Below are positions 7,028 through 28,347 of a DNA stretch of 64,000 nt, piece by piece. The notes under the pieces are model-generated. The model searched no databases, was not told where the DNA came from, and saw only the letters and a program-made list of their open reading frames with translations. Source of the stretch: Alistipes sp. UBA940 (lineage in GTDB: Bacteria; Bacteroidota; Bacteroidia; Bacteroidales; Rikenellaceae); NCBI GenBank assembly GCA_002293425.1, contig DBDE01000043.1:41021-105020 (forward strand). The letters run 5' to 3'. The position numbers and the translations under genes are program-made. Positions within the stretch are counted from its first letter, which is position 1. The number at the start of each line of letters is the position of its first letter.

Positions 7028-8218
7028 CTAAACCTCCAAATCTCCATCAAAAACCTCCACCCACGGCAACCCCAACGGCCCCAACTCTTTAAGGAACGGA
7101 TCGGGATCGAACTCCTCCACATTGAAAACTCCCGAACCACCCCAAACACCCCGCGCCACAAGCGATGCTCCCAAAGCCGCCGGAACACCCGTCGTATAAC
7201 TCACCGCCTGGGTCCCCGTCTCGCGATACGCCGCCTCGTGATCGCAATTATTATAAATATAGTAAGTGCGCTCCCTGCCATCCTTCACCCCCCTGATCCT
7301 GCACCCGATACTCGTCAATCCCGTATAGTTCTCCCCAAGGCTCTTCGGGTCGGGCAAAACAGCCTTCAGGAACTGTATAGGCACAATCTTCGTACCATTA
7401 TAGTCCACCTCGTCGATGCGCGCCATCCCTATATTCTGTATAACGCGCAAATGGGTCAAATATTCCTGACCGAAAGTCATCCAAAAACGAGCCCGCTTCA
7501 GCGTCGGGAAATTCTTGACCAAACTCTCCAACTCCTCGTGGTAAATAAGGTACGACTCCTTAGGACCAATCTCCGGATAGTCGATGGGTTGATGTATCTC
7601 GTGCGGCTCGGTCTCCACCCAGCGGCCATTCTCCCAATAGCGTCCCTTCTGGGTGACCTCCCTGATATTGATCTCCGGATTGAAATTGGTCGCAAAAGCC
7701 ATTCCGTGGTTGCCCGCATTGCAATCCACAATATCCAAATAGTGAATCTCGTCGAAATAGTGCTTAACGGCATAAGCGGTGAAAATGCTCGTCACCCCGG
7801 GATCGAACCCACAGCCCAACACGGCCGTCAATCCGGCCTCCTCGAAGCGTTTCTTATACGCCCACTGCCACTTATACTCGAACTTGGCCTCGTCCTTGGG
7901 TTCATAATTGGCCGTGTCCAGATAGTTAACCCCGCACTCCAGGCAAGCGTCCATAATGGTCAAATCCTGGTACGGCAACGCGACATTGATGACCAGATCG
8001 GGAGAATATTTCCGAAACAGCGAAACCAACTCCGGCACACTGTCGGCGTCCACCTGCTCGGTTGCGATGCGATTGCCGCCCACCGCACGGGCTATCGCTT
8101 CGGCCTTCGAAACGGTGCGTGAAGCGAGGATAATGTCGGTGAAAACGGGGTCGGCGGCCACTTTATGGGCAACGACTGTGCCGACACCGCCGGCTCCGAT
8201 GATGATAACTTTTGCCAT
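7028..8218 (-). CDS. Saccharopine dehydrogenase family enzyme, carboxynorspermidine synthase (CANSDH)-like
   Basis: The ORF track starts at 8293. I prefer the ATG at 8218 (MAKVIIIGAGGVGTVVAHKVA, a Rossmann GxGxxG at the N-terminus). It lies near nspC. Confidence 0.8.
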   Translation of the reverse strand: MAKVIIIGAGGVGTVVAHKVAADPVFTDIILASRTVSKAEAIARAVGGNRIATEQVDADSVPELVSLFRKYSPDLVINVALPYQDLTIMDACLECGVNYLDTANYEPKDEAKFEYKWQWAYKKRFEEAGLTAVLGCGFDPGVTSIFTAYAVKHYFDEIHYLDIVDCNAGNHGMAFATNFNPEINIREVTQKGRYWENGRWVETEPHEIHQPIDYPEIGPKESYLIYHEELESLVKNFPTLKRARFWMTFGQEYLTHLRVIQNIGMARIDEVDYNGTKIVPIQFLKAVLPDPKSLGENYTGLTSIGCRIRGVKDGRERTYYIYNNCDHEAAYRETGTQAVSYTTGVPAALGASLVARGVWGGSGVFNVEEFDPDPFLKELGPLGLPWVEVFDGDLEV

Positions 8219-18235: not shown

Positions 18236-18842
18236 GATGCTGACCGCATTCGGATGCGGCACAAAGGAGTTCCAGCCGCAAACCGGCGACCTGCTCTTTC
18301 AAGTAGGATCGACAGGCGATATGACCCAAGCAATTGCACTCTCGACAGGAGACGGGCACGATGTGCCCTACACCCACGTGGCAATAGTCGTGATCGAACC
18401 CGACGGAACTTATGCTCTCGAAGCGTCAGGCAAAAAAGGCGTTGTGATGACACCGCTGGCGGAATTTCTCTCCGGCTCAGCCACCCTGAACGATAGACCC
18501 GTGGTTGCGGTGGGCCGACTGCGCTCACCCGAGCGCAAACATCTGGTCGGGCAAGCAATAAGCCGCGCCAAAACCTTTCTGGGGCAACCGTACGACAACT
18601 CATTCCTGCCCGACAACGAAAAAATGTATTGCAGCGAATTGGTCTGGGAGAGCTTTCGGGACGACAACGGGCCGATTCTCGAAGCCCGTCCGATGAATTT
18701 CCGCGCACCCGACGGCACGATGCCTCCCTATTGGACCGAGCATTTCGCGGCACTCGGCGAGCCGATTCCCGAGGGAGTCCACGGCACCAATCCCGACGAT
18801 ATGTCGCGCGACCAGGCCATTGTCATCGTTCACAGGTACTGA
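18201..18842 (+). CDS. YiiX/YaeF-like permuted papain-fold (NlpC/P60 superfamily) lipoprotein
   Basis: 213 aa with lipobox LTAFGCG. GDLLFQ...HVAIVV...YALEASGKKGVVMTPL...GQPYD..F......MYCSELVWESF matches the permuted Cys/His arrangement of this family. Confidence 0.65.
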   Translation: MKRENIFAAAAMMLTAFGCGTKEFQPQTGDLLFQVGSTGDMTQAIALSTGDGHDVPYTHVAIVVIEPDGTYALEASGKKGVVMTPLAEFLSGSATLNDRPVVAVGRLRSPERKHLVGQAISRAKTFLGQPYDNSFLPDNEKMYCSELVWESFRDDNGPILEARPMNFRAPDGTMPPYWTEHFAALGEPIPEGVHGTNPDDMSRDQAIVIVHRY

Positions 18843-20032
18843 GCGGCATTGCCCGACAAATCCGATTCGATAGAGAATTTGCGATAAGCCGAATCGCGCC
18901 AACCGTGATTATATATCCACTGGTTAGCGTCCAAAATCGACCGCCGAACATTGAAGGTCTTATAGTGGTAAGTTAGCCCCAAATAGGAGTTCACCACGCT
19001 GCGCAACTCCTCCGGCCGACGCGAAAAATATCCGTCGCCCTTAGCCAGCGCACTCTTGAAATTGTTAACCGTCCGGCGAGCAACATATATCCTGTGGGGC
19101 TTAACCACCTTGCCCAAAAACGTCACCCCGCGCCTGACATGTTGCAAATAAACCTTGCGCGGATGTACCCTGATGCCCAAATTGTCGGCCAAATAGGTGC
19201 GTATCTTCTCTATCGCGTCGACCAAAAACTGTTTCGAGGGATGGATGATGAAAAAGTCGTCCACATACCGCCCATAGTGTTCCACCCCCAGCGTGCGCTT
19301 CACAAAATGGTCGAAGTCGTTCAAATAGACATTGCTGAAAAGCTGGCTCGTCAGGTTGCCGATAGGCAGTCCGCAACCCTCGGGCGACGTGAACAAACTT
19401 TTGTCGGGCGGCAACCCGTTCCACTCGCTCATATCGCCCCGAATAAAGCAATCCTTCAACGGATCGTGGTAAATTATCTCTCGCGTGAGATATAACAGCA
19501 GGTCGTAATCTATCGCCTCGCTGAACCGTTGACCTCGCGAATTGCGCCGAGGGGCATATTTAAGCAGCGTGCCAGCCACCATCTCGAACAGCTTCTCGCG
19601 GTCGATGCTCATAAAATAGCCCGACAGGTCGAGCTTCAGCACATAAGCGTCGCGGGTGTAATTGTCCGAGCAACTGCGGATATGGTGATCGAGCCGCTCC
19701 ACGCCATAGCTCGTTCCGCGACCCTTGCGGCACGAATAGCAATCGGCAATGAACGACCGTTCGAAAATTTCGTTGGTATAGTTATAAAACAAGTGATGGA
19801 TGACCCGATCGGCGAACGAAGCGGCAAACACCTCGCGCTTAACGGGTTCCTCGATGATGAAAGCAACCGACCGACCAACCTTATAAGTGCGGTCGCGCAG
19901 GTGTTGGAACAGGCCGTAAATCTTATCTTCCATCTGCAACTCGAACTTGAGCTGGTTGCAGGTGTTGCGCTTATTGCGTCGGGCATCGTAATATGCCTGC
20001 AAGAGATCTTCGAAAAGTTTTTCTTCCGACAT
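18830..20032 (-). CDS. DGR-type reverse transcriptase
   Basis: 400 aa with catalytic YVDDFFII (YxDD). LPIGNLTSQLFSNVYL matches the [ILV]GxxxSQ signature that separates DGR RTs from group II intron and retron RTs. It lies 45 nt downstream of the TR. Confidence 0.9.
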   Translation of the reverse strand: MSEEKLFEDLLQAYYDARRNKRNTCNQLKFELQMEDKIYGLFQHLRDRTYKVGRSVAFIIEEPVKREVFAASFADRVIHHLFYNYTNEIFERSFIADCYSCRKGRGTSYGVERLDHHIRSCSDNYTRDAYVLKLDLSGYFMSIDREKLFEMVAGTLLKYAPRRNSRGQRFSEAIDYDLLLYLTREIIYHDPLKDCFIRGDMSEWNGLPPDKSLFTSPEGCGLPIGNLTSQLFSNVYLNDFDHFVKRTLGVEHYGRYVDDFFIIHPSKQFLVDAIEKIRTYLADNLGIRVHPRKVYLQHVRRGVTFLGKVVKPHRIYVARRTVNNFKSALAKGDGYFSRRPEELRSVVNSYLGLTYHYKTFNVRRSILDANQWIYNHGWRDSAYRKFSIESDLSGNAAQYL

Positions 20033-20077
20033 ATTTAGAAGTTGTTAAAAAAACAGGTGAGGGCGGGGCGACAAATT

Positions 20078-20264
20078 CTGGGCAAGGCAGCGGACGGAAA
20101 AACCGTTCGCATAATTGTTGCGATTCACCGGCCAAACGCCATTCGCGTTGAAGTTCAGGTTGTACCCGTTGGATCCGTCGTAGGGCGTAGAGGCCCAGTA
20201 GTTTCCGTTTGTACCCTGATTGTTCACAACACCCGTGTCCCAAGCACGGTTCCCGGCTGCCGGT
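20078..20264 (-). repeat. DGR template repeat (TR), 187 nt, non-coding
   Basis: Identical to 21491-21677 except at 20251 (T on the + strand, so A on the coding strand) versus 21664 (A on the + strand, so T on the coding strand). In the VR frame it is rich in AAC (Asn) codons. Confidence 0.9.
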
Positions 20265-20491
20265 TGTTAGTGATCGCTCTTCTCTTTGCAGCGGCGGACA
20301 GGATCTTTCACCCGAACGACGAACAAATGACAATCCCATATTTCAGAGTTGTCCATAACTGAAAGCAAAAACCCCCAGTGGATCACTGAATTTATCGTGG
20401 TTACTCTCTCCCAAACGGCACTCGACCGAGGAGACTCCGACCTTAACCCCGCCTTAGCTCACCTGTGTGTTTTTATATATTAAAGTAGTTT

Positions 20492-20872
20492 TCAGGTCAT
20501 TAAAATTTCCTCTTTTGCTTCTTGTTTTTCCAATTTTCGCAACGCCTTTTCCCAAGCCACAAGTTGGCTGGAGATGTTTCCCAGGTGGAGCACGATGCGG
20601 GCCATATTTTTTATCGGCATCTGGTGGAGGTCCCGAAGGAGCCTTACCTTCAACCGGATGGCCTCGACGTGTTCGCGTGCCTGCATCACGTGGGTCACTT
20701 TCTCTTTGTGCGTTTGTGCGCGGTAGATGCACAGTTGCAGTTCGCCGAGCAATTCTTTGAGTCTTTCGCCGATGGTGTACCGATATTCGCGCTTCATCGT
20801 TCGGCACGAGTGATACACCTCGATCACTAATTCACTTGCAGCTTTGAAAACGGGCAGTTGGTCATATTGCAT
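20492..20872 (-). CDS. avd: Four-helix-bundle protein, Avd-like DGR accessory factor
   Basis: 126 aa. MQYDQLPVFKAASELVIEVYHSCRTMKREYRYTIGERL resembles the 23S-rRNA-intervening-sequence/four-helix-bundle family to which DGR Avd proteins belong. It lies between the target gene and the TR. Confidence 0.75.
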   Translation of the reverse strand: MQYDQLPVFKAASELVIEVYHSCRTMKREYRYTIGERLKELLGELQLCIYRAQTHKEKVTHVMQAREHVEAIRLKVRLLRDLHQMPIKNMARIVLHLGNISSQLVAWEKALRKLEKQEAKEEILMT

Positions 20873-21335
20873 ATTCGAGTGTAGTTTTCAATTCCGAGAC
20901 AAACATCATACACTCCATCGGGGTTTTGTTCTCGACATTGAAATCCCTCAGGCGATCGACGAGTTTGTCGGCAAATTCGGTACGCCGGTCGGGCGCAGGT
21001 GCAAATTTAGGTTGTTTTATGTAAAGTGGTGCACCTTTTTTCCAAATTTCGAAATCTTTTTCTACAACTCTTTCGGGTGATTGCAGTACTATCAGCTTCT
21101 CTGTTTTTTCGATAATCGGCGCGGTAATAGCCCTCAGAGCCGAATCGGGAAATCCCAGGGAGGCCATTTCCAGACCAAGTTTCTTGATATATTTTTTTTG
21201 CGCACGGTATGGTTTAATGTGTGTCGAAAACAGATAAGCGGACTTTTCGTATGCTATCCAAAACAGCCGCTCCTTGTGGAGATGAATCCGGTCGGTGTTG
21301 GACTGTTCCATTTCAAAAATATCCTGCTTCATCAT
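20862..21335 (-). CDS. Small MutS-like (MSL-type) DGR accessory ORF
   Basis: 157 aa. The N-terminus (RLFWIAYEKSAYLFS...LGLEMASLGFPDSAL) resembles the mismatch-binding domain I pattern of MutS. The C-terminus (LVDRLRDFNVENKTPMECMMFVSELKTTL) resembles the MutS C-terminal LD..LTP.EAL..L..LK helix. The comparison is by eye only. Confidence 0.45.
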   Translation of the reverse strand: MMKQDIFEMEQSNTDRIHLHKERLFWIAYEKSAYLFSTHIKPYRAQKKYIKKLGLEMASLGFPDSALRAITAPIIEKTEKLIVLQSPERVVEKDFEIWKKGAPLYIKQPKFAPAPDRRTEFADKLVDRLRDFNVENKTPMECMMFVSELKTTLEYAI

Positions 21336-21410
21336 GATATTTCGTTGTTTTTTTGTGTCAAAATTTTTTCTTCGAATTTTTCGACGGAAAAACCGTCGAA
21401 AAATTGTTTG

Positions 21411-21441
21411 AAAAAAGGTCGGGGCTCGGGAAGCCCCGACC
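21411..21441 (-). terminator. Rho-independent terminator-like hairpin after the DGR target gene
   Basis: 10-bp stem GGTCGGGGCT/AGCCCCGACC with loop CGGGA, followed on the minus strand by TTTTTT. Confidence 0.55.
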
Positions 21442-21462
21442 TGATAAAAACAATCATCGGAC

Positions 21463-21483
21463 GAGCGGAAACGAGTTCCGCTC
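21463..21483. other. Hairpin/cruciform-forming inverted repeat just 3' of the VR
   Basis: GAGCGGAA-ACGAG-TTCCGCTC (8-bp stem, 5-nt loop), beginning 4 nt after the target stop codon. It is absent from the equivalent flank of the TR. Confidence 0.6.
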
Positions 21484-21487
21484 TAAA

Positions 21488-23956
21488 TTACTGGGCAAGG
21501 CAGCGGACGGAAAAACCGTTCGCATAATTGTTGCGATTCACCGGCCAAACGCCATTCGCGTTGAAGTTCAGGTTGTACCCGTTGGATCCGTCGTAGGGCG
21601 TAGAGGCCCAGTAGTTTCCGTTTGTACCCTGATTGTTCACAACACCCGTGTCCCAAGCACGGTACCCGGCTGCCGGTAAAACCTGCGTTGTAGGGTTCTG
21701 GAAGCCGTTTTCCACGGGGAATTTAGCCAGGCCCGGGGTTGTAGCCGTACCTGCCACAGGTGTTCCGGTAAAGTCAACACCGCCCACACTCCAGCTCTGA
21801 GGATAGCTGTGTCTCAGGGCCGCGTTGTTGTTGTGCCCCGGAGAGATGGTGTTGGTGTCGCCAACCCAGCCCGGGTTGAAACGCCAGTTGTAGTTGGCCA
21901 CGCCCGGATCGGCTGCCGTTTCTGTGCGCCACGTAGTCCAGTAGGTGTTCGGATTATAGTTTGCCACAGGTGTACCGTTGGTGTTGGGCAACTTGGTGTC
22001 GGTACCGTTCACGAAATAGATATTTTCGTACACCGTCGGCAGGCGCCACTGCTTGTTGTCGATCTTGCCCTTCTTGATGTCGTCGATGGACAATCCGGCC
22101 AGCTTACAGGGGTCGCCCTTGCCCGCCTTGACGTTGTCCAGGTTGTGGTATTCGGGATCCGAAACGTTCAACTTGCCCGCCACGAAGTCGGCGTTCACAT
22201 ACTGCGGAATGGTCAACCAGCCTTCATTGGCAGTACCCGCGGGAACAACGTCCGAAGGGTTGTAAGCGATGTCGGTCGCCGCATCGAATGTGTCACTGGT
22301 GGTCTCGGGAGCGATACCCACGATGCCACCGAACTTAAAGTAAGGCATCTTGTCGATGCTGTTAACATTGGTACCCCACTTGCCCACCTTCAACATACCT
22401 CCGTCCAGATAGAGGATATTGGCCTCGCCACCCGTGAAGCGGCGCACGCGGATTCTCTGGTCGAGGTCGGGATCGTCGTTCGAACGAACGATCACGTCGG
22501 CCTCCATATATTCCAGCGAACCGCCGCCAACAGTCACCTCGAAAGTGTTTTTCCACGTCAAAGCGCGGGTTTCTACCGCAACGGGTTCGAGAGTGGTGGT
22601 GACCGAAATCGGGTTGTCCAGACCGCCCACAATGTATTTCACCTCGACGGTGGTATTGGCATCGTCCGAAGTGGTGGTGAAAATCATATTGGCAGGTTCG
22701 GCACCCGGGCCGTCGAGCACATTGAGTGTACCCAGCAGGTCGTCAGCGTCATTGTCGTCGAGCAACCACTCCACATTCTCATAAGCAGCAGCAACCGCAG
22801 CGGCATCGTCCGGATCGGCAAACACGACCACACTCTGAGCAGCATTTTCGCCGGGCTCGGTGGGAAGGGTGTTGTCCTCGCCATTGTTGTTGGTGTACCA
22901 GTCGTCTTCGATAACCGAGCTCTTGTCCAGACCTGGTTCGAGACGGATGGTATAGCGATGATTGGCCAAAATATCGGTGTCCTCGCTAACCACGACCGGC
23001 AACAGGATAGGCTGGCCGCCCAGCGTACCTTCGACGATGATCTGGGTACCCGTTCCGTCGGCCTTGATGGTGGTCGGATAGAGGTAGAACACGCTCTGAG
23101 CCACCCAACGATAGCCCGCTTCGGGATTCATATCGTCATAGGTCAAACCCGCACCGTTCAACGCTTCATAGTCGTCATAAGTGACGAGCGGATCGATAAC
23201 CGTCGGATCGGCCGAACCGAAGATGGGGCCCAGGGCAGGTGCATCGGCAATGTAAACATTGGTCACCACAAAGATGTCGGACGCCGGAACACCAGCACCG
23301 TGATTGGGATTCTCGATGTCGAAACGCGCCTCACGACGGATCAACTCGCCCGTCTCCACAATCTTTCCGGTCAACACAAGCTCCTTCGAAACCGAGAAGA
23401 GCAGCCTCGTCGTAGCTCCGTCGGGCTTGGCAATGGGCACCAGGCCCGAACCGTTGTCGGGCAGAGCGTCGGTAAGCGAATTGACGAAATCGGCACCCGT
23501 GGGCAACGCACCATCGTCCAACGCATCCTGAATAGCCGGGAACGTACCTTCGGCAAACGCGCCCGACGACTTGCCATTGGCCACGAAATAGAAAGTGTAG
23601 GTCTCGCCTATGCGGCCCGGAGTGTCGATCCAATCCTGGTCGATGACGATGTGGTAGGTCTGACTGCCGCTACCGGCTTCGGTCGCGGTGGGAGCACCGA
23701 TCTCATAGTCGACACCCTCTTCGAGCAACATCACGTCGCCCGTGGCCGCCGCGGCATAAACACGAATGTCCGCAGCGTCGATGTCCCACTCAACGGAGGT
23801 TGCAATGTCGGCCCTGGTAACAAACGGGGCCTGGGGCGTCTTAAAGCTGAAGCTCAACGCCGCCGAATGACCCTCGATCTTCTGGGGGTCTTTGGCACAC
23901 GATACCGCGCCGGCAAACATCAGCGCAGCAAGTGCATATTTCAAAACATTTTTCAT
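21488..23956 (-). CDS. DGR target: fimbrial (type V pilus, tip-adhesin-like) lipoprotein with a C-terminal lectin-fold variable region
   Basis: 822 aa with lipobox FAGAVSC. The N-terminus is paralogous to the upstream fimbrillin gene (FVTRA.IAT..EW, ARFDIENP, FYLYPT). The C-terminus ...GNYWASTPYDGSNGYNLNFNANGVWPVNRNNYANGFSVRCLAQ is the WxS...FSVRC pattern of DGR-diversified C-type-lectin-fold / Fib_succ_major-like domains. Confidence 0.85.
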   Translation of the reverse strand: MKNVLKYALAALMFAGAVSCAKDPQKIEGHSAALSFSFKTPQAPFVTRADIATSVEWDIDAADIRVYAAAATGDVMLLEEGVDYEIGAPTATEAGSGSQTYHIVIDQDWIDTPGRIGETYTFYFVANGKSSGAFAEGTFPAIQDALDDGALPTGADFVNSLTDALPDNGSGLVPIAKPDGATTRLLFSVSKELVLTGKIVETGELIRREARFDIENPNHGAGVPASDIFVVTNVYIADAPALGPIFGSADPTVIDPLVTYDDYEALNGAGLTYDDMNPEAGYRWVAQSVFYLYPTTIKADGTGTQIIVEGTLGGQPILLPVVVSEDTDILANHRYTIRLEPGLDKSSVIEDDWYTNNNGEDNTLPTEPGENAAQSVVVFADPDDAAAVAAAYENVEWLLDDNDADDLLGTLNVLDGPGAEPANMIFTTTSDDANTTVEVKYIVGGLDNPISVTTTLEPVAVETRALTWKNTFEVTVGGGSLEYMEADVIVRSNDDPDLDQRIRVRRFTGGEANILYLDGGMLKVGKWGTNVNSIDKMPYFKFGGIVGIAPETTSDTFDAATDIAYNPSDVVPAGTANEGWLTIPQYVNADFVAGKLNVSDPEYHNLDNVKAGKGDPCKLAGLSIDDIKKGKIDNKQWRLPTVYENIYFVNGTDTKLPNTNGTPVANYNPNTYWTTWRTETAADPGVANYNWRFNPGWVGDTNTISPGHNNNAALRHSYPQSWSVGGVDFTGTPVAGTATTPGLAKFPVENGFQNPTTQVLPAAGYRAWDTGVVNNQGTNGNYWASTPYDGSNGYNLNFNANGVWPVNRNNYANGFSVRCLAQ
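21491..21677 (-). repeat. DGR variable repeat (VR)
   Basis: The last 187 coding nt of the target gene. 186 of 187 positions are identical to the TR. Confidence 0.9.
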
Positions 23957-23992: not shown

Positions 23993-25513
23993 TTAGTTGG
24001 CTGCGCGAACAATGCTGATCGTCTTTTTGCCGTTGTCGTCATCCCAGCCGATGAGCTGGAATGTGGCGTCGAGAGCCTCGTCGGTATCGGTTATCACGAA
24101 GCGATACTGATCGGTTGTCTCCTTGGTCGCACGGTCGTACATAGCCGTCTTGGTAACCGCGATAAGTCCATCAGCGTCGCCCGAGAGGATATAGGCCGTA
24201 CCGAACTTCGAGGTCACGTCGATAACGAACTCGCCGTCGGCAACAGCCGTTCCCTGATCAATCGTCCAGGTGAAGGCCAGATCGGTGCTCTCGAAATCGG
24301 CCGCATTTGCGTTGGCGAGCTCGAAAGCGGCACCCAAAGTACCTGTGTAGTCGACACTCGGAGCCTCGTCGTTAACACGCGAACCCGGAGCGGCAGGCAA
24401 AATCTCGCCCGTGTCGTAATCCTGCGAAATGAGGTCGATGCTCATCTTGGTGGTGTTCACGCGCAGAATATATCGGTTGTTGCGCTTGATGTCCTTGTCG
24501 GCCACGATTGGCAAAACCTGCTCTACACCATTGTCGCCCTGACGGCCAAGGATGTAGATCTGGGTTTCGGTCGCCGGATCGTCGCCCAGCTTGGTGGGAT
24601 AGAGATAGAACACCGCCGGAGCCACCGTCTCTTCGGTCAGATTGGTCGAACCCAGCTCGGTGTAATCGCTTGCGCTCAGGCCCGGAAGTTCAACCAGGTC
24701 GTGGAGCTCCACGTCGGTCGCCCAATTGGTCGCATTGGCGTTGCCGAAAACGTAGCCCTTTTGTGCCGCGTTGGAAACCAAAATGCGAGTGATGACAAAC
24801 GCACCCTTCGACTCATCGCCCGGAATATCGTCGTGGTCGCCCTGAGCCTCGGGATTCTCGATGTCGAAACGCGCCACGGCACGCTCCAGCTGGCCACGCA
24901 CCGAGGTGTTGCTCGAAATGGTCACCGGACCCACAACGTCGCTGAACAGCAGGTTCTTAGTGCTGTTGCCGGGAGTCTCGCCGTCCGGATGTTCGATGTC
25001 CTCCATCTGGCCGTCGGTCACGACCAAAGCCTTGGTCAACGCCTGCTTGAAGGTCGCCTCCGAAGCCGAGCTCAGATCGGGCGCACCCTTCATCGACGAG
25101 TTCGCATTGGCCACGAAGTAGAAGGTCACGTCCTTACCCGAGTTGGCAGTCAACCAATCTTCGGCCATGGTGATGGTGTACTTCTGCGAAGAGATCTCGT
25201 CGAAGTCGTCGTTGATCAAGTAGTCTTCGTCCGCTTCCAGCGTTTGGTCGCCGTTCCCAAGACGAAGTTTGCTCATCTGACCCATTTCCTGATCGCCCTG
25301 TCCCTGTTCGGCGATGGCAACATAAACATCGAGGGTCTTCACATTCCACTCGGCATCGGTCGCGATAGTTGCGCGGGTGACGAACGGGTGGTGAGGTTTG
25401 TCGAACGCAATGGTCAGACCGAGTTTCTCCTTAGCCGGAGTGTCTGCCGGATCGTTCGTACACGACGCCAGCCCCACTGCAAGGACTGTCATCAAAATAA
25501 ACAGTTTTTTCAT
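23993..25513 (-). CDS. Fimbrillin-family (FimA/Mfa-like) lipoprotein
   Basis: 506 aa with lipobox VGLASC. It shares N-terminal motifs with the DGR target (HHPFVTRATIATDAEWNVKTLDVYV, ARFDIENPEA, VFYLYPT). Confidence 0.7.
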   Translation of the reverse strand: MKKLFILMTVLAVGLASCTNDPADTPAKEKLGLTIAFDKPHHPFVTRATIATDAEWNVKTLDVYVAIAEQGQGDQEMGQMSKLRLGNGDQTLEADEDYLINDDFDEISSQKYTITMAEDWLTANSGKDVTFYFVANANSSMKGAPDLSSASEATFKQALTKALVVTDGQMEDIEHPDGETPGNSTKNLLFSDVVGPVTISSNTSVRGQLERAVARFDIENPEAQGDHDDIPGDESKGAFVITRILVSNAAQKGYVFGNANATNWATDVELHDLVELPGLSASDYTELGSTNLTEETVAPAVFYLYPTKLGDDPATETQIYILGRQGDNGVEQVLPIVADKDIKRNNRYILRVNTTKMSIDLISQDYDTGEILPAAPGSRVNDEAPSVDYTGTLGAAFELANANAADFESTDLAFTWTIDQGTAVADGEFVIDVTSKFGTAYILSGDADGLIAVTKTAMYDRATKETTDQYRFVITDTDEALDATFQLIGWDDDNGKKTISIVRAAN

Positions 25514-25555: not shown

Positions 25556-26641
25556 TTAATTCAAGGTTCCTCCTTCGGTCCAGTCGGCGACCGAAAGGCC
25601 GCCCATCGGATTCATTATTATCTTGTCGCCGTCGATCACAATGTCTATTATATAGTCCTGCTTCAGCTCGTGATCGAGGTTATAGCCGAAGTGGGCAAAG
25701 TACTGTCCGAGATCTATCTCGCGCGGCAACACCATCGGGTCGTTCTCGCCCCGCGTACCGTCGGGCGCAAAATAGAGTTTCATAATAAGCGGCGTTGCAT
25801 TCTTCACCCGATAATTGACAAACTGGCCCCAAACCTCGCTGTCGGCGTTCAAATAGGTGGTGTTGCTGTGGTCTATCACGTTGCCCCGCTCGAACTGCGA
25901 GTGGACCAAATGGTGGATCACCCTGTTATCGCTCCACGGATAATCGTCGTGGGCGCGTGTATCGTGTTGCCGAGCCACAAAACTCCCCGCCGGATAGAGC
26001 CACTCGGGCATCAACCTGTACTGCGAAACCACATCCTCCAACACCGCATAGTACGTTCCGCGCTTAGGAACCGGACTATTGCGCCACGTCACACGAAACC
26101 TCACCTGGAAATGGGCATTCACCATATCCACCCTCACACGCGTCGCTCCACCCTCCTCCCTGACCGTGAAAGTGCGATAACCGTGAAACAACTCGCCGCA
26201 CGGACCCCGGGTCCCGTCCTCGAAAGTGTCGGCGTTCTCCAACGTCATCCGCAAATCCTCCCTGTCCGTCATCCCTACCACCGGCAACTGTCCCGTACGC
26301 GCATCCCAAACCGTACTGCAATCACCGTTGCCCACCGCCAGGATCGAATATTTGCCCGCCTCCAACTGCAACTCCGAGTTCATATAATCGGTACACATAT
26401 CATCCGTCACCCGCCGAATGTGATAAAGTTTATCATTCTCGTCGAAAATATACTCGTCGATGAACTTCACCCAATACACAATCTTATTCTCGTCCGTAGT
26501 GTTCTCCTCGTTGTAATCATAGCGAAGCTGCACAGTGTAAGTGCAAATCTCTATCTCGTGCATATCCACGTCGCAACCCGCCAGCAAAGCAAAAAGCAAC
26601 ATCGCCGCTGTCGCCGCAAAATATTTCAAAGATCGTCTCAC
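25556..26641 (-). CDS. FimB/Mfa2-family fimbrial anchor-like lipoprotein
   Basis: 361 aa with a GTG start and lipobox LLAGC. The size and the sequence after the lipobox (YTVQLRYDYNEENTTDENK...) resemble Mfa2-type anchors. It lies between the DUF3868 gene and the fimbrillin gene, and has a GTGA overlap with the upstream gene. Confidence 0.6.
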   Translation of the reverse strand: MRRSLKYFAATAAMLLFALLAGCDVDMHEIEICTYTVQLRYDYNEENTTDENKIVYWVKFIDEYIFDENDKLYHIRRVTDDMCTDYMNSELQLEAGKYSILAVGNGDCSTVWDARTGQLPVVGMTDREDLRMTLENADTFEDGTRGPCGELFHGYRTFTVREEGGATRVRVDMVNAHFQVRFRVTWRNSPVPKRGTYYAVLEDVVSQYRLMPEWLYPAGSFVARQHDTRAHDDYPWSDNRVIHHLVHSQFERGNVIDHSNTTYLNADSEVWGQFVNYRVKNATPLIMKLYFAPDGTRGENDPMVLPREIDLGQYFAHFGYNLDHELKQDYIIDIVIDGDKIIMNPMGGLSVADWTEGGTLN

Positions 26642-28093: not shown

Positions 28094-28347
28094 ATCTGTC
28101 GCCTAAAAAGCGACAGATGTTTTCACACGGCAAATGTAAAACATATTTTTTTATTTCTACAAATAAATCGTTAAAAAAATAAATATTTTTTGCCTATACA
28201 TACGACGAACGACCCTTGAATTAGGGGCCGTTCTGCGAGCTAATACTCTGGCTACAAGCCACTTATATCGCTAAGATAAACCGTCGTAATATAACTACAC
28301 ATCTGTCGCTTTTAAAGCGACAGATGTTAACGTAAAAGCGACAGATG
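28094..28347. repeat. Cluster of GCGACAGATG / CATCTGTCGC motifs forming two hairpins plus one extra copy
   Basis: ATCTGTCGC at 28094-28102 pairs with GCGACAGATG at 28110-28119. CATCTGTCGC at 28300-28309 pairs with GCGACAGATG at 28317-28326. A further GCGACAGATG lies at 28338-28347, and a related TCGACAGATA at 29571-29580. Confidence 0.8.

Follow-up and report, generated by a model that had tools for sequence, protein, structure and literature searches.

We describe here a diversity-generating retroelement (DGR) in a 64,000-nt stretch of DNA from Alistipes sp. UBA940 (GenBank assembly GCA_002293425.1, contig DBDE01000043.1, positions 41,021 to 105,020 of the forward strand; hereafter, the window), in which the variable repeat (VR) that ends the target gene is an almost perfect copy of the template repeat (TR). 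Judged from the contigs of related assemblies, this TR-like VR is probably a chimera or consensus produced during assembly, and not a biological allele: near-identical contigs of the same strain carry VRs that are mutated at TR adenines, and the fragmentation of further contigs at variable bases points to more than one allele within single samples.

Comparison of the template and variable repeats

Base-by-base comparison of the TR (20078-20264) with the VR (21491-21677), which lie at a fixed offset of 1413 nt, finds identity at 186 of 187 positions, and a repeat search of the window recovered the same pair independently. The sole mismatch, T on the + strand at 20251 in the TR versus A at 21664 in the VR, is the one reported in the initial annotation, and the comparison exposed no others that might have been overlooked. 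On the coding (-) strand, AAC in the TR thus corresponds to TAC in the VR, which is the codon for Tyr765 of the 822-aa target. A near-perfect repeat of 187 nt is far beyond chance; the unusual aspect of this one is that its copies hardly differ at all. Adenines number 44 on the coding strand of the TR, which also has 14 AAY codons, counted in the VR frame, and the VR has 13 AAY codons for Asn; these had been described as AAC-type, and they comprise, strictly, nine AAC and four AAT. The VR peptide quoted at that time agrees with our translation, and the assignment of the two copies as the TR and VR of a DGR was correct.

The VR forms the C-terminus of the target, the open reading frame (ORF) of which ends ...NGFSVRCLAQ*, and the repeat is identical up to the last sense codon, CAG. 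Its last 28 nt are GC-rich (...CCGTCCGCTGCCTTGCCCAG) and the same in both copies; as had been recognized, the initiation of mutagenic homing (IMH) site in the VR and its counterpart, IMH*, in the TR are, therefore, indistinguishable inside the repeat. The further statement that the copies diverge only in the flank holds for the identity as far as CAG, but the flanks (VR, CCCAG-T-AATTT-AGAGCGG; TR, CCCAG-AATTT-GTCGCCCC) are not fully unrelated, as a 1-nt indel directly after CAG is followed by five further matching bases. DGRs with identical IMH and IMH* are known, and recognition in these must reach downstream (Wu et al. 2018, PMC5758913). A scan of the 64-kb window gave no further VR-like copy, even when only the non-adenine positions were scored, and on this basis we discarded the idea that the window holds another VR.

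Diversified variable repeats in assemblies of the same strain

The 90%-identity cluster of the target contains two other 822-aa versions of the protein, whose differences from that of the window are confined to Y765 and 12 of the 13 Asn codons. The corresponding sister contigs, L005 (SRR797682) and L006 (SRR797685), are from MEGAHIT-named single-run assemblies of PRJNA193472, a gut metagenome of the fungus-farming termite Macrotermes natalensis (PMC6520439). Over 22,469 aligned bases, L005 differs from the window at 14 positions, all of them in the VR at TR adenines and none elsewhere; L006 differs at 16, of which 14 are in the VR at TR adenines and two are single-nucleotide polymorphisms (SNPs) elsewhere. 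Relative to the TR, both VRs have 15 changes, 15/15 at TR adenines, and they also differ from each other; there are, in consequence, three distinct VRs on near-identical flanks. The changes in both contigs include silent GGA>GGG/GGC substitutions (at G780 and G790), the mark of adenine mutagenesis and not of selection on the protein. The TR, avd and the reverse transcriptase (RT) gene are base-identical across the window, L005 and L006.

Because near-identical contigs carry different adenine-mutated VRs, the DGR is active in this strain, and it is the VR of the window that is the odd one out; to judge by these assemblies, the element is clearly active in near-clonal populations of different samples. 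Hence, the earlier reading of the VR as essentially undiversified fails for the organism, L005 and L006 each having 14 adenine-specific changes relative to the window. The window agrees with the SRR797682 contig at both of the flank SNPs and at 21664, which is consistent with an origin of the window in the SRR797682 population, or in a co-assembly where that population prevails. Two further searches for alleles were negative: the VR/TR core, with N at every adenine, had zero matches in a metagenome contig collection, from which the strain is accordingly absent, and the naive peptide of the C-terminus, used as a query against proteins, retrieved no additional VR alleles.

Heterogeneity within samples

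Logan contigs assembled at k=31 provide an indirect view of the variation within individual samples. One of these (L002, from SRR797682) begins at 21519, one nucleotide past the variable base 21520, and continues unbroken through the second accessory ORF (ORF157, described below), avd, the whole of the TR and the RT gene. From SRR5322546, L088 stops at 21665, one nucleotide before the variable base 21664, and L004 extends from 21550 into the TR, where it terminates at the homologue of base 21521. Breaks in k=31 contigs at variable bases indicate that at least two alleles are present per sample in each of two samples. The unbroken TR of the SRR797682 contig implies, in turn, that no abundant VR in that sample shares the last 31-mers of the TR; a TR-identical VR (over 173 nt) that was abundant in SRR797682 is also argued against, because a k=31 graph could not then have spanned the TR. 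The whole TR is likewise unbroken in an NCBI metagenome contig (L003).

A possible template-like path through the assembly graph

The initial annotation had offered four explanations for the similarity of the repeats, and the one that we favour, in view of the adenine diversification of L005 and L006, is an assembly consensus that masks a heterogeneous VR. In such a case, the assembler would meet many low-coverage VR haplotypes beside a single full-coverage TR. At small k, the variable sites would form bubbles between the full-coverage TR path and several VR paths of lower coverage, and they would collapse onto the TR path through bubble popping, repeat collapse or majority consensus. The true VR base would be kept only at 21664, which is within one k-mer of the unique 5' flank (14 nt) and would lie on a VR-specific branch. 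A switch from the VR path to the TR path is possible because even the diversified alleles share exact tracts of 26 nt (21663-21638) and 29 nt (21519-21491) with the TR. For Bacteroides DGRs, a median mutational density of ~50% of the available adenines has been reported, with A the most frequent base at variable positions (10.1101/2024.11.15.621889); as A is commonest at these positions, taking the majority base at each position of a mixed VR would likewise give a TR-like sequence.

The plausibility of such a path was explored with a toy model, namely, a greedy maximum-coverage walk through a de Bruijn graph in which the locus had one unchanging TR and a mixture of VRs. The VR mixtures were L005 and L006 at 60:40, L005 and L006 together with random haplotypes, and 20 random haplotypes. 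For k=15-27, the walk returned the VR of the window exactly, with zero differences and with the T at 21664 retained; for k>=31, it returned the dominant true haplotype.

Several points weigh against an assembly artefact. The argument is built from assembled contigs. The toy walk is not a real assembler; it speaks for sufficiency and is not proof, and it breaks ties arbitrarily where the VR and TR have the same coverage (scenario B). Had the VR been replaced biologically, with the 5' crossover falling between 21664 and 21663, the 5'-most difference would likewise have been left in place. Moreover, the L004 haplotype has a 31-nt TR-identical tract that spans seven consecutive unchanged TR adenines, and extended unmutated stretches are, thus, found in real haplotypes.

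If assembly is indeed responsible, the consequences would extend beyond this locus. Short-read metagenome assemblies and metagenome-assembled genomes (MAGs) could exchange a heterogeneous VR for TR sequence, giving a pseudo-naive target protein and a TR/VR pair that is almost devoid of A-mismatches. This pair would escape DGR finders that depend on several A-to-N mismatches, and it could be misread as an inactive or fidelity-altered element. The literature was searched for accounts of a TR-into-VR artefact of assembly, with no relevant result.

Alternative explanations

A comparison set of 80 relatives was retrieved by an RT search of genome contigs; the genome of the window is not among them, and the best RT relative (Alistipes sp. 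UBA943) has 63% identity. An avd homologue is encoded in 50 of the 80 loci, and 37 have a clean A-biased TR/VR pair. In these 37, the TR and VR have 10-32 mismatches (median 19), and none has five or fewer.

We think it unlikely that the naive VR is a real allele dominating one termite-gut sample. Were it so, the DGR or its host would be able to reset a diversified adhesin to a template-encoded, all-Asn ground state, either by TR-to-VR gene conversion or by a switch of RT-Avd (with or without the MutS-like accessory protein) to faithful copying of adenines; this would amount to a regulated erase step, which is undescribed in DGR biology.

The better of the routes to such an allele is a RecA-type gene conversion, in which the TR was copied over a diversified VR, the tract ended between 21663 and 21664, and the product came to dominate the sampled gut. 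The TR and VR are direct repeats 1.4 kb apart that share identical tracts of 26-37 nt also when the VR is diversified, and the retained 5' difference would fit the boundary of a conversion tract; furthermore, the samples are dominated by different VR alleles, such that a rare allele could dominate in one host. However, identity between the diversified VRs and the TR is only ~92%, a mismatch falling every 5-30 nt. Such dense mismatches strongly suppress homologous recombination. Nor was the naive allele seen in three other looks at the population, while a near-identical pair occurs in 0/37 of the related DGRs and the k=31 contig of SRR797682 passes through the TR without a break. We give gene conversion, the support for which is confined to the window itself, only a slim chance.

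Even less likely, in our estimation, is a retrohoming event with almost no adenine misincorporation, whether by chance or under a condition in which RT-Avd copies faithfully. The sole difference does lie at a TR adenine, the L004 haplotype has retained seven consecutive TR adenines, and A is the commonest base at the variable positions of Bacteroides DGR products (10.1101/2024.11.15.621889). Against this, the probability of at most one changed adenine per homing event ranges from about 2e-5 (for the 20 sites seen to vary, at 50% each) to 3e-7 (for 44 adenines at the observed density), which renders the recent homing event proposed in the initial annotation very improbable. A fidelity mutation is contradicted by the base identity of the RT gene, avd and the TR in contigs with 15 changes from the TR, and the proposal of a fidelity-altered or repressed RT is unsupported for the same reason.

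The last possibility, a repressed or inactive DGR with a VR that was never diversified (the ancestral state), is suggested by the window taken alone, where one of 44 adenines is changed, and by the quiescence of some Bacteroides pilus DGRs in the laboratory (10.1101/2024.11.15.621889), but it is barely credible, as the sister contigs, with zero and two SNPs in 22 kb of flank, have two different adenine-mutated VRs that require very recent activity, and the contig breaks at variable bases indicate ongoing heterogeneity. The identity of the flanks excludes an origin of these two assemblies in a different strain. An inactive RT was rejected, since the RT gene, avd and TR of the diversified contigs are base-identical to those of the window.

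Organization of the locus

All genes of the locus are on the - strand, in the order Mfa2-like anchor, Mfa1-like stalk, target with C-terminal VR, MutS-like ORF, avd, TR and RT (Table 1). Everything needed for mutagenic retrohoming is in place.

Table 1. Features of the DGR and the associated pilus operon, in the order of the - strand (coordinates are those of the window)
Feature	Coordinates	Strand	Remarks
Mfa2-like pilus anchor gene	25556..26641	-	361 aa; Pfam Mfa2 PF08842, E=2.5e-18, above cut-off; first recognisable gene of type V pilus operon
Mfa1/FimA-like stalk pilin gene	23993..25513	-	506 aa; NCBIfam fim_Mfa1_fam, E=2.6e-10, below curated cut-off; weak P_gingi_FimA match
DGR target, candidate pilus tip adhesin	21488..23956	-	822 aa, lipoprotein-type; from ORF and translation; N-terminus MKNVLKYALAALMFAGAVSC
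VR	21491..21677	-	186/187 identical to TR in this assembly
Sole VR/TR mismatch	21664	-	Coding T (TR: A); 14 nt inside 5' boundary of repeat; same allele in SRR797682 assembly
Hairpin/cruciform-type inverted repeat	21463..21483	-	7 nt downstream of VR; 8-bp stem GAGCGGAA/TTCCGCTC, 5-nt loop
Strong intrinsic-terminator-like hairpin	21416..21442	-	12-bp stem and T6; predicted to end pilus/target transcript
ORF157, MutS-domain-I-like ('MSL'-type) candidate	20862..21335	-	157 aa, or 149 aa from internal ATG; gene callers disagree on start
avd	20492..20872	-	126 aa; Pfam bAvd PF22296, 41.5 bits, above gathering score; NCBIfam DivGenRetAVD, E=1.9e-10
Non-coding leader between avd and TR	20265..20491	-	227 nt; holds 5' arm (20447-20465) of long-range helix
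TR	20078..20264	-	Intergenic; identical in all sister contigs
3' arm of long-range helix and U7	20047..20068	-	CCCCGCCCUCACCUG arm at 20054-20068, U-run at 20047-20053; between TR and RT
DGR RT	18830..20032	-	400 aa, intact; RVT_1, E=1.7e-14

The target begins with a lipoprotein-like N-terminus (...AGAVSC), as read from the sequence. It has a weak match to the FimD tip adhesin at residues 1-137 and another to Lcl_C/DUF1566 at residues 627-696, before the VR, both below cut-off (the curated one in the case of FimD). Short direct repeats with 80-85% identity (23306-23350/24851-24895 and 23564-23596/25094-25126) are present at a constant offset of ~1.53-1.55 kb, and they show the N-terminal part of the target to be a paralogue of the upstream Mfa1-like stalk pilin gene. 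A PDB sequence search with the target gave no match, and an AlphaFold model of its C-terminal 287 aa had a pLDDT (predicted local distance difference test) value of 38.6, rendering it unusable for fold assignment.

The hairpin downstream of the VR folds as DNA with -9.3 kcal/mol (z=-3.6), and a counterpart after the TR is absent. Between the terminator of the target and the ORF157/avd/TR/RT block, there is a sigma-70-like promoter match (TTGACA-16-TATCAT, 11/12; 21334-21361, - strand), the relevance of which is uncertain, given that the Bacteroidota consensus differs. The RT gene lies 45 nt from the TR, and the encoded protein has both the GLPIGNLTSQLFSNVYL motif (GLPIGNLTSQ, which fits the [I/L]GxxxSQ of the DGR clade) and the YVDDF catalytic box.

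At the other end of the locus, a 384-nt gap separates a tyrosine recombinase gene (Phage_integrase) from the DUF3575 gene that heads the pilus locus. It contains three copies of a palindromic element (ATCTGTCGC...GCGACAGAT) at 28094-28120, 28299-28325 and 28333-28347, two of which form a 27-nt inverted repeat with 93% identity, 178 nt apart. These copies could act on the pilus operon as an invertible promoter or as operators.

ORF157 is the second accessory ORF of the element, and its homologues are found directly upstream of avd in 19 of the 80 related DGR loci. Its match to MutS_I (E=0.014) scores 16 bits against a cut-off of 20.6, and seven of 15 family members match MutS_I; a PDB search with the profile of the ORF157 family had no match. 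The MutS-like (MSL) accessory class of Wu et al. 2018 (PMC5758913) goes together with avd and CLec2/DUF1566-type VRs, and, on the strength of its similarity and context, ORF157 probably belongs to it.

A predicted helix bracketing the leader and template repeat

The minimum free energy fold contains a long-range helix between CAGGUGAGCUAAGGCGGGG (20447-20465) and CCCCGCCCUCACCUG (20054-20068), which is followed by U7. In the closest relative, Alistipes sp. UBA943 (L007; RT 63% identical), a helix of unrelated sequence has the same geometry, one arm being ~179 nt upstream of the TR of that contig (2370-2565) and the other 7 nt downstream, and is followed by U5. Several other relatives have a segment 166-204 nt upstream that pairs with the first bases after the TR. 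The duplex-energy z-scores of the bracketing helix relative to shuffles are not significant, and only the conserved geometry is suggestive; on these predictions, the helix may be a conserved stem that closes the DGR RNA, or may form its 3' end.

Proposed mechanism and relationship to known elements

By its sequence, the locus is a canonical active DGR of Bacteroidales (probably Rikenellaceae-like) from the gut of Macrotermes natalensis. A TR-containing RNA, possibly closed by the helix 20447-20465/20054-20068 and U7, would be transcribed and then reverse-transcribed by RT-Avd, with random incorporation opposite adenines, to give a mutagenized cDNA. This would replace the VR by integrating at its 3' end, where the identical 28-nt GC-rich terminus and the downstream hairpin would define the target, and the outcome would be variation in the ligand-binding head of the pilus tip adhesin. 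The steps involving RNA, cDNA and integration are inferred from the established mechanism of BPP-1 and Bacteroides elements; what the contigs themselves display are the components, a variation between clonal contigs that is restricted to adenines, and a hairpin that follows only the VR.

The type of element is already known, being a pilus-tip-adhesin DGR of Bacteroidales, here in a termite-gut symbiont. Its closest counterparts, as far as sequence comparison indicates, are the type V pilus-tip DGRs of Bacteroides and the Legionella-type CLec2/MSL lineage. In the DGRs of Bacteroides, the proteins diversified are the tip adhesins of type V pili (Macadangdang et al., bioRxiv 10.1101/2024.11.15.621889). 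These elements (Bfr/Bth/Bun/Bov/Bfi) share with the present one a Bacteroidales host, a pilin-like lipoprotein target with the VR in a C-terminal head, an operon with anchor and stalk pilin genes, an AAY-rich TR, an avd-TR-RT core and adenine-specific VR haplotypes that differ between hosts. By contrast, the host here is from the termite gut and is not a human Bacteroides, the RT is ~49-52% identical to those of the Bacteroides relatives found, the target is large (822 aa) with weak matches to pilin models, and there is an extra MutS-like ORF between the target and avd.

In Legionella pneumophila Corby, the DGR (LdtA; category 'd', PMC5758913) likewise has a lipoprotein target, a small MutS-like ORF together with avd, and a CLec2/DUF1566-type VR (here, the DUF1566/Lcl_C signal is weak), and the end of its VR reads ...GFSVRC, as here. 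Category 'd' targets include some with P_gingi_FimA N-terminal extensions (Wu et al. 2018, PMC5758913). The two elements differ in phylum and in the N-terminus of the target, and the MutS_I similarity of the present ORF is below the Pfam threshold.

The DGR of Bordetella phage BPP-1 (mtd-avd-TR-brt) has the same target-avd-TR-RT order, with the VR at the 3' end of the target gene, adenine-only substitutions and an 8-bp inverted repeat a few nucleotides downstream of the VR. Retrohoming in BPP-1 requires this hairpin, and its position and stem match those of the 21463-21483 element of the window (PMC3240598). The loop is, however, 5 nt here and not the GRNA tetraloop of phage DGRs; moreover, the element is chromosomal/cellular and not carried by a phage, with IMH and IMH* indistinguishable inside the repeat, the distance from the TR to the start of the RT gene is only 45 nt, and there is an additional accessory ORF.

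Observations in other DGR contigs

A search with the naive, Asn-rich VR peptide matched 18 database proteins (P0008-P0025) of 94-190 aa, mostly ~147-152 aa. The majority are tagged PF26707/DUF8237, and the aligned parts are Asn-rich and resemble the translated TRs of other DGRs. For one of the 18, P0017 (4001-4444 of L091), this nature was verified: it lies directly upstream of an RT gene in a phage contig and has an A-rich repeat copy, with 21 of 31 mismatches at its adenines. Spurious TR ORFs of this kind may populate protein databases, possibly also PF26707. As an alignment for structure prediction of the target, the 18 proteins proved useless.

Three Rikenella MAG contigs (L008, L012 and L014) have up to about ten ~190-nt VR/TR-like tandem repeats within 4-5 kb upstream of their RT genes, suggesting that a single TR serves arrays of small target genes that carry VRs. 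Finally, a 7.3-kb Anaerolineales contig (L083) has identical 136-nt ends (1-136 and 7158-7293), and is probably a circular or terminally redundant element that carries a DGR.

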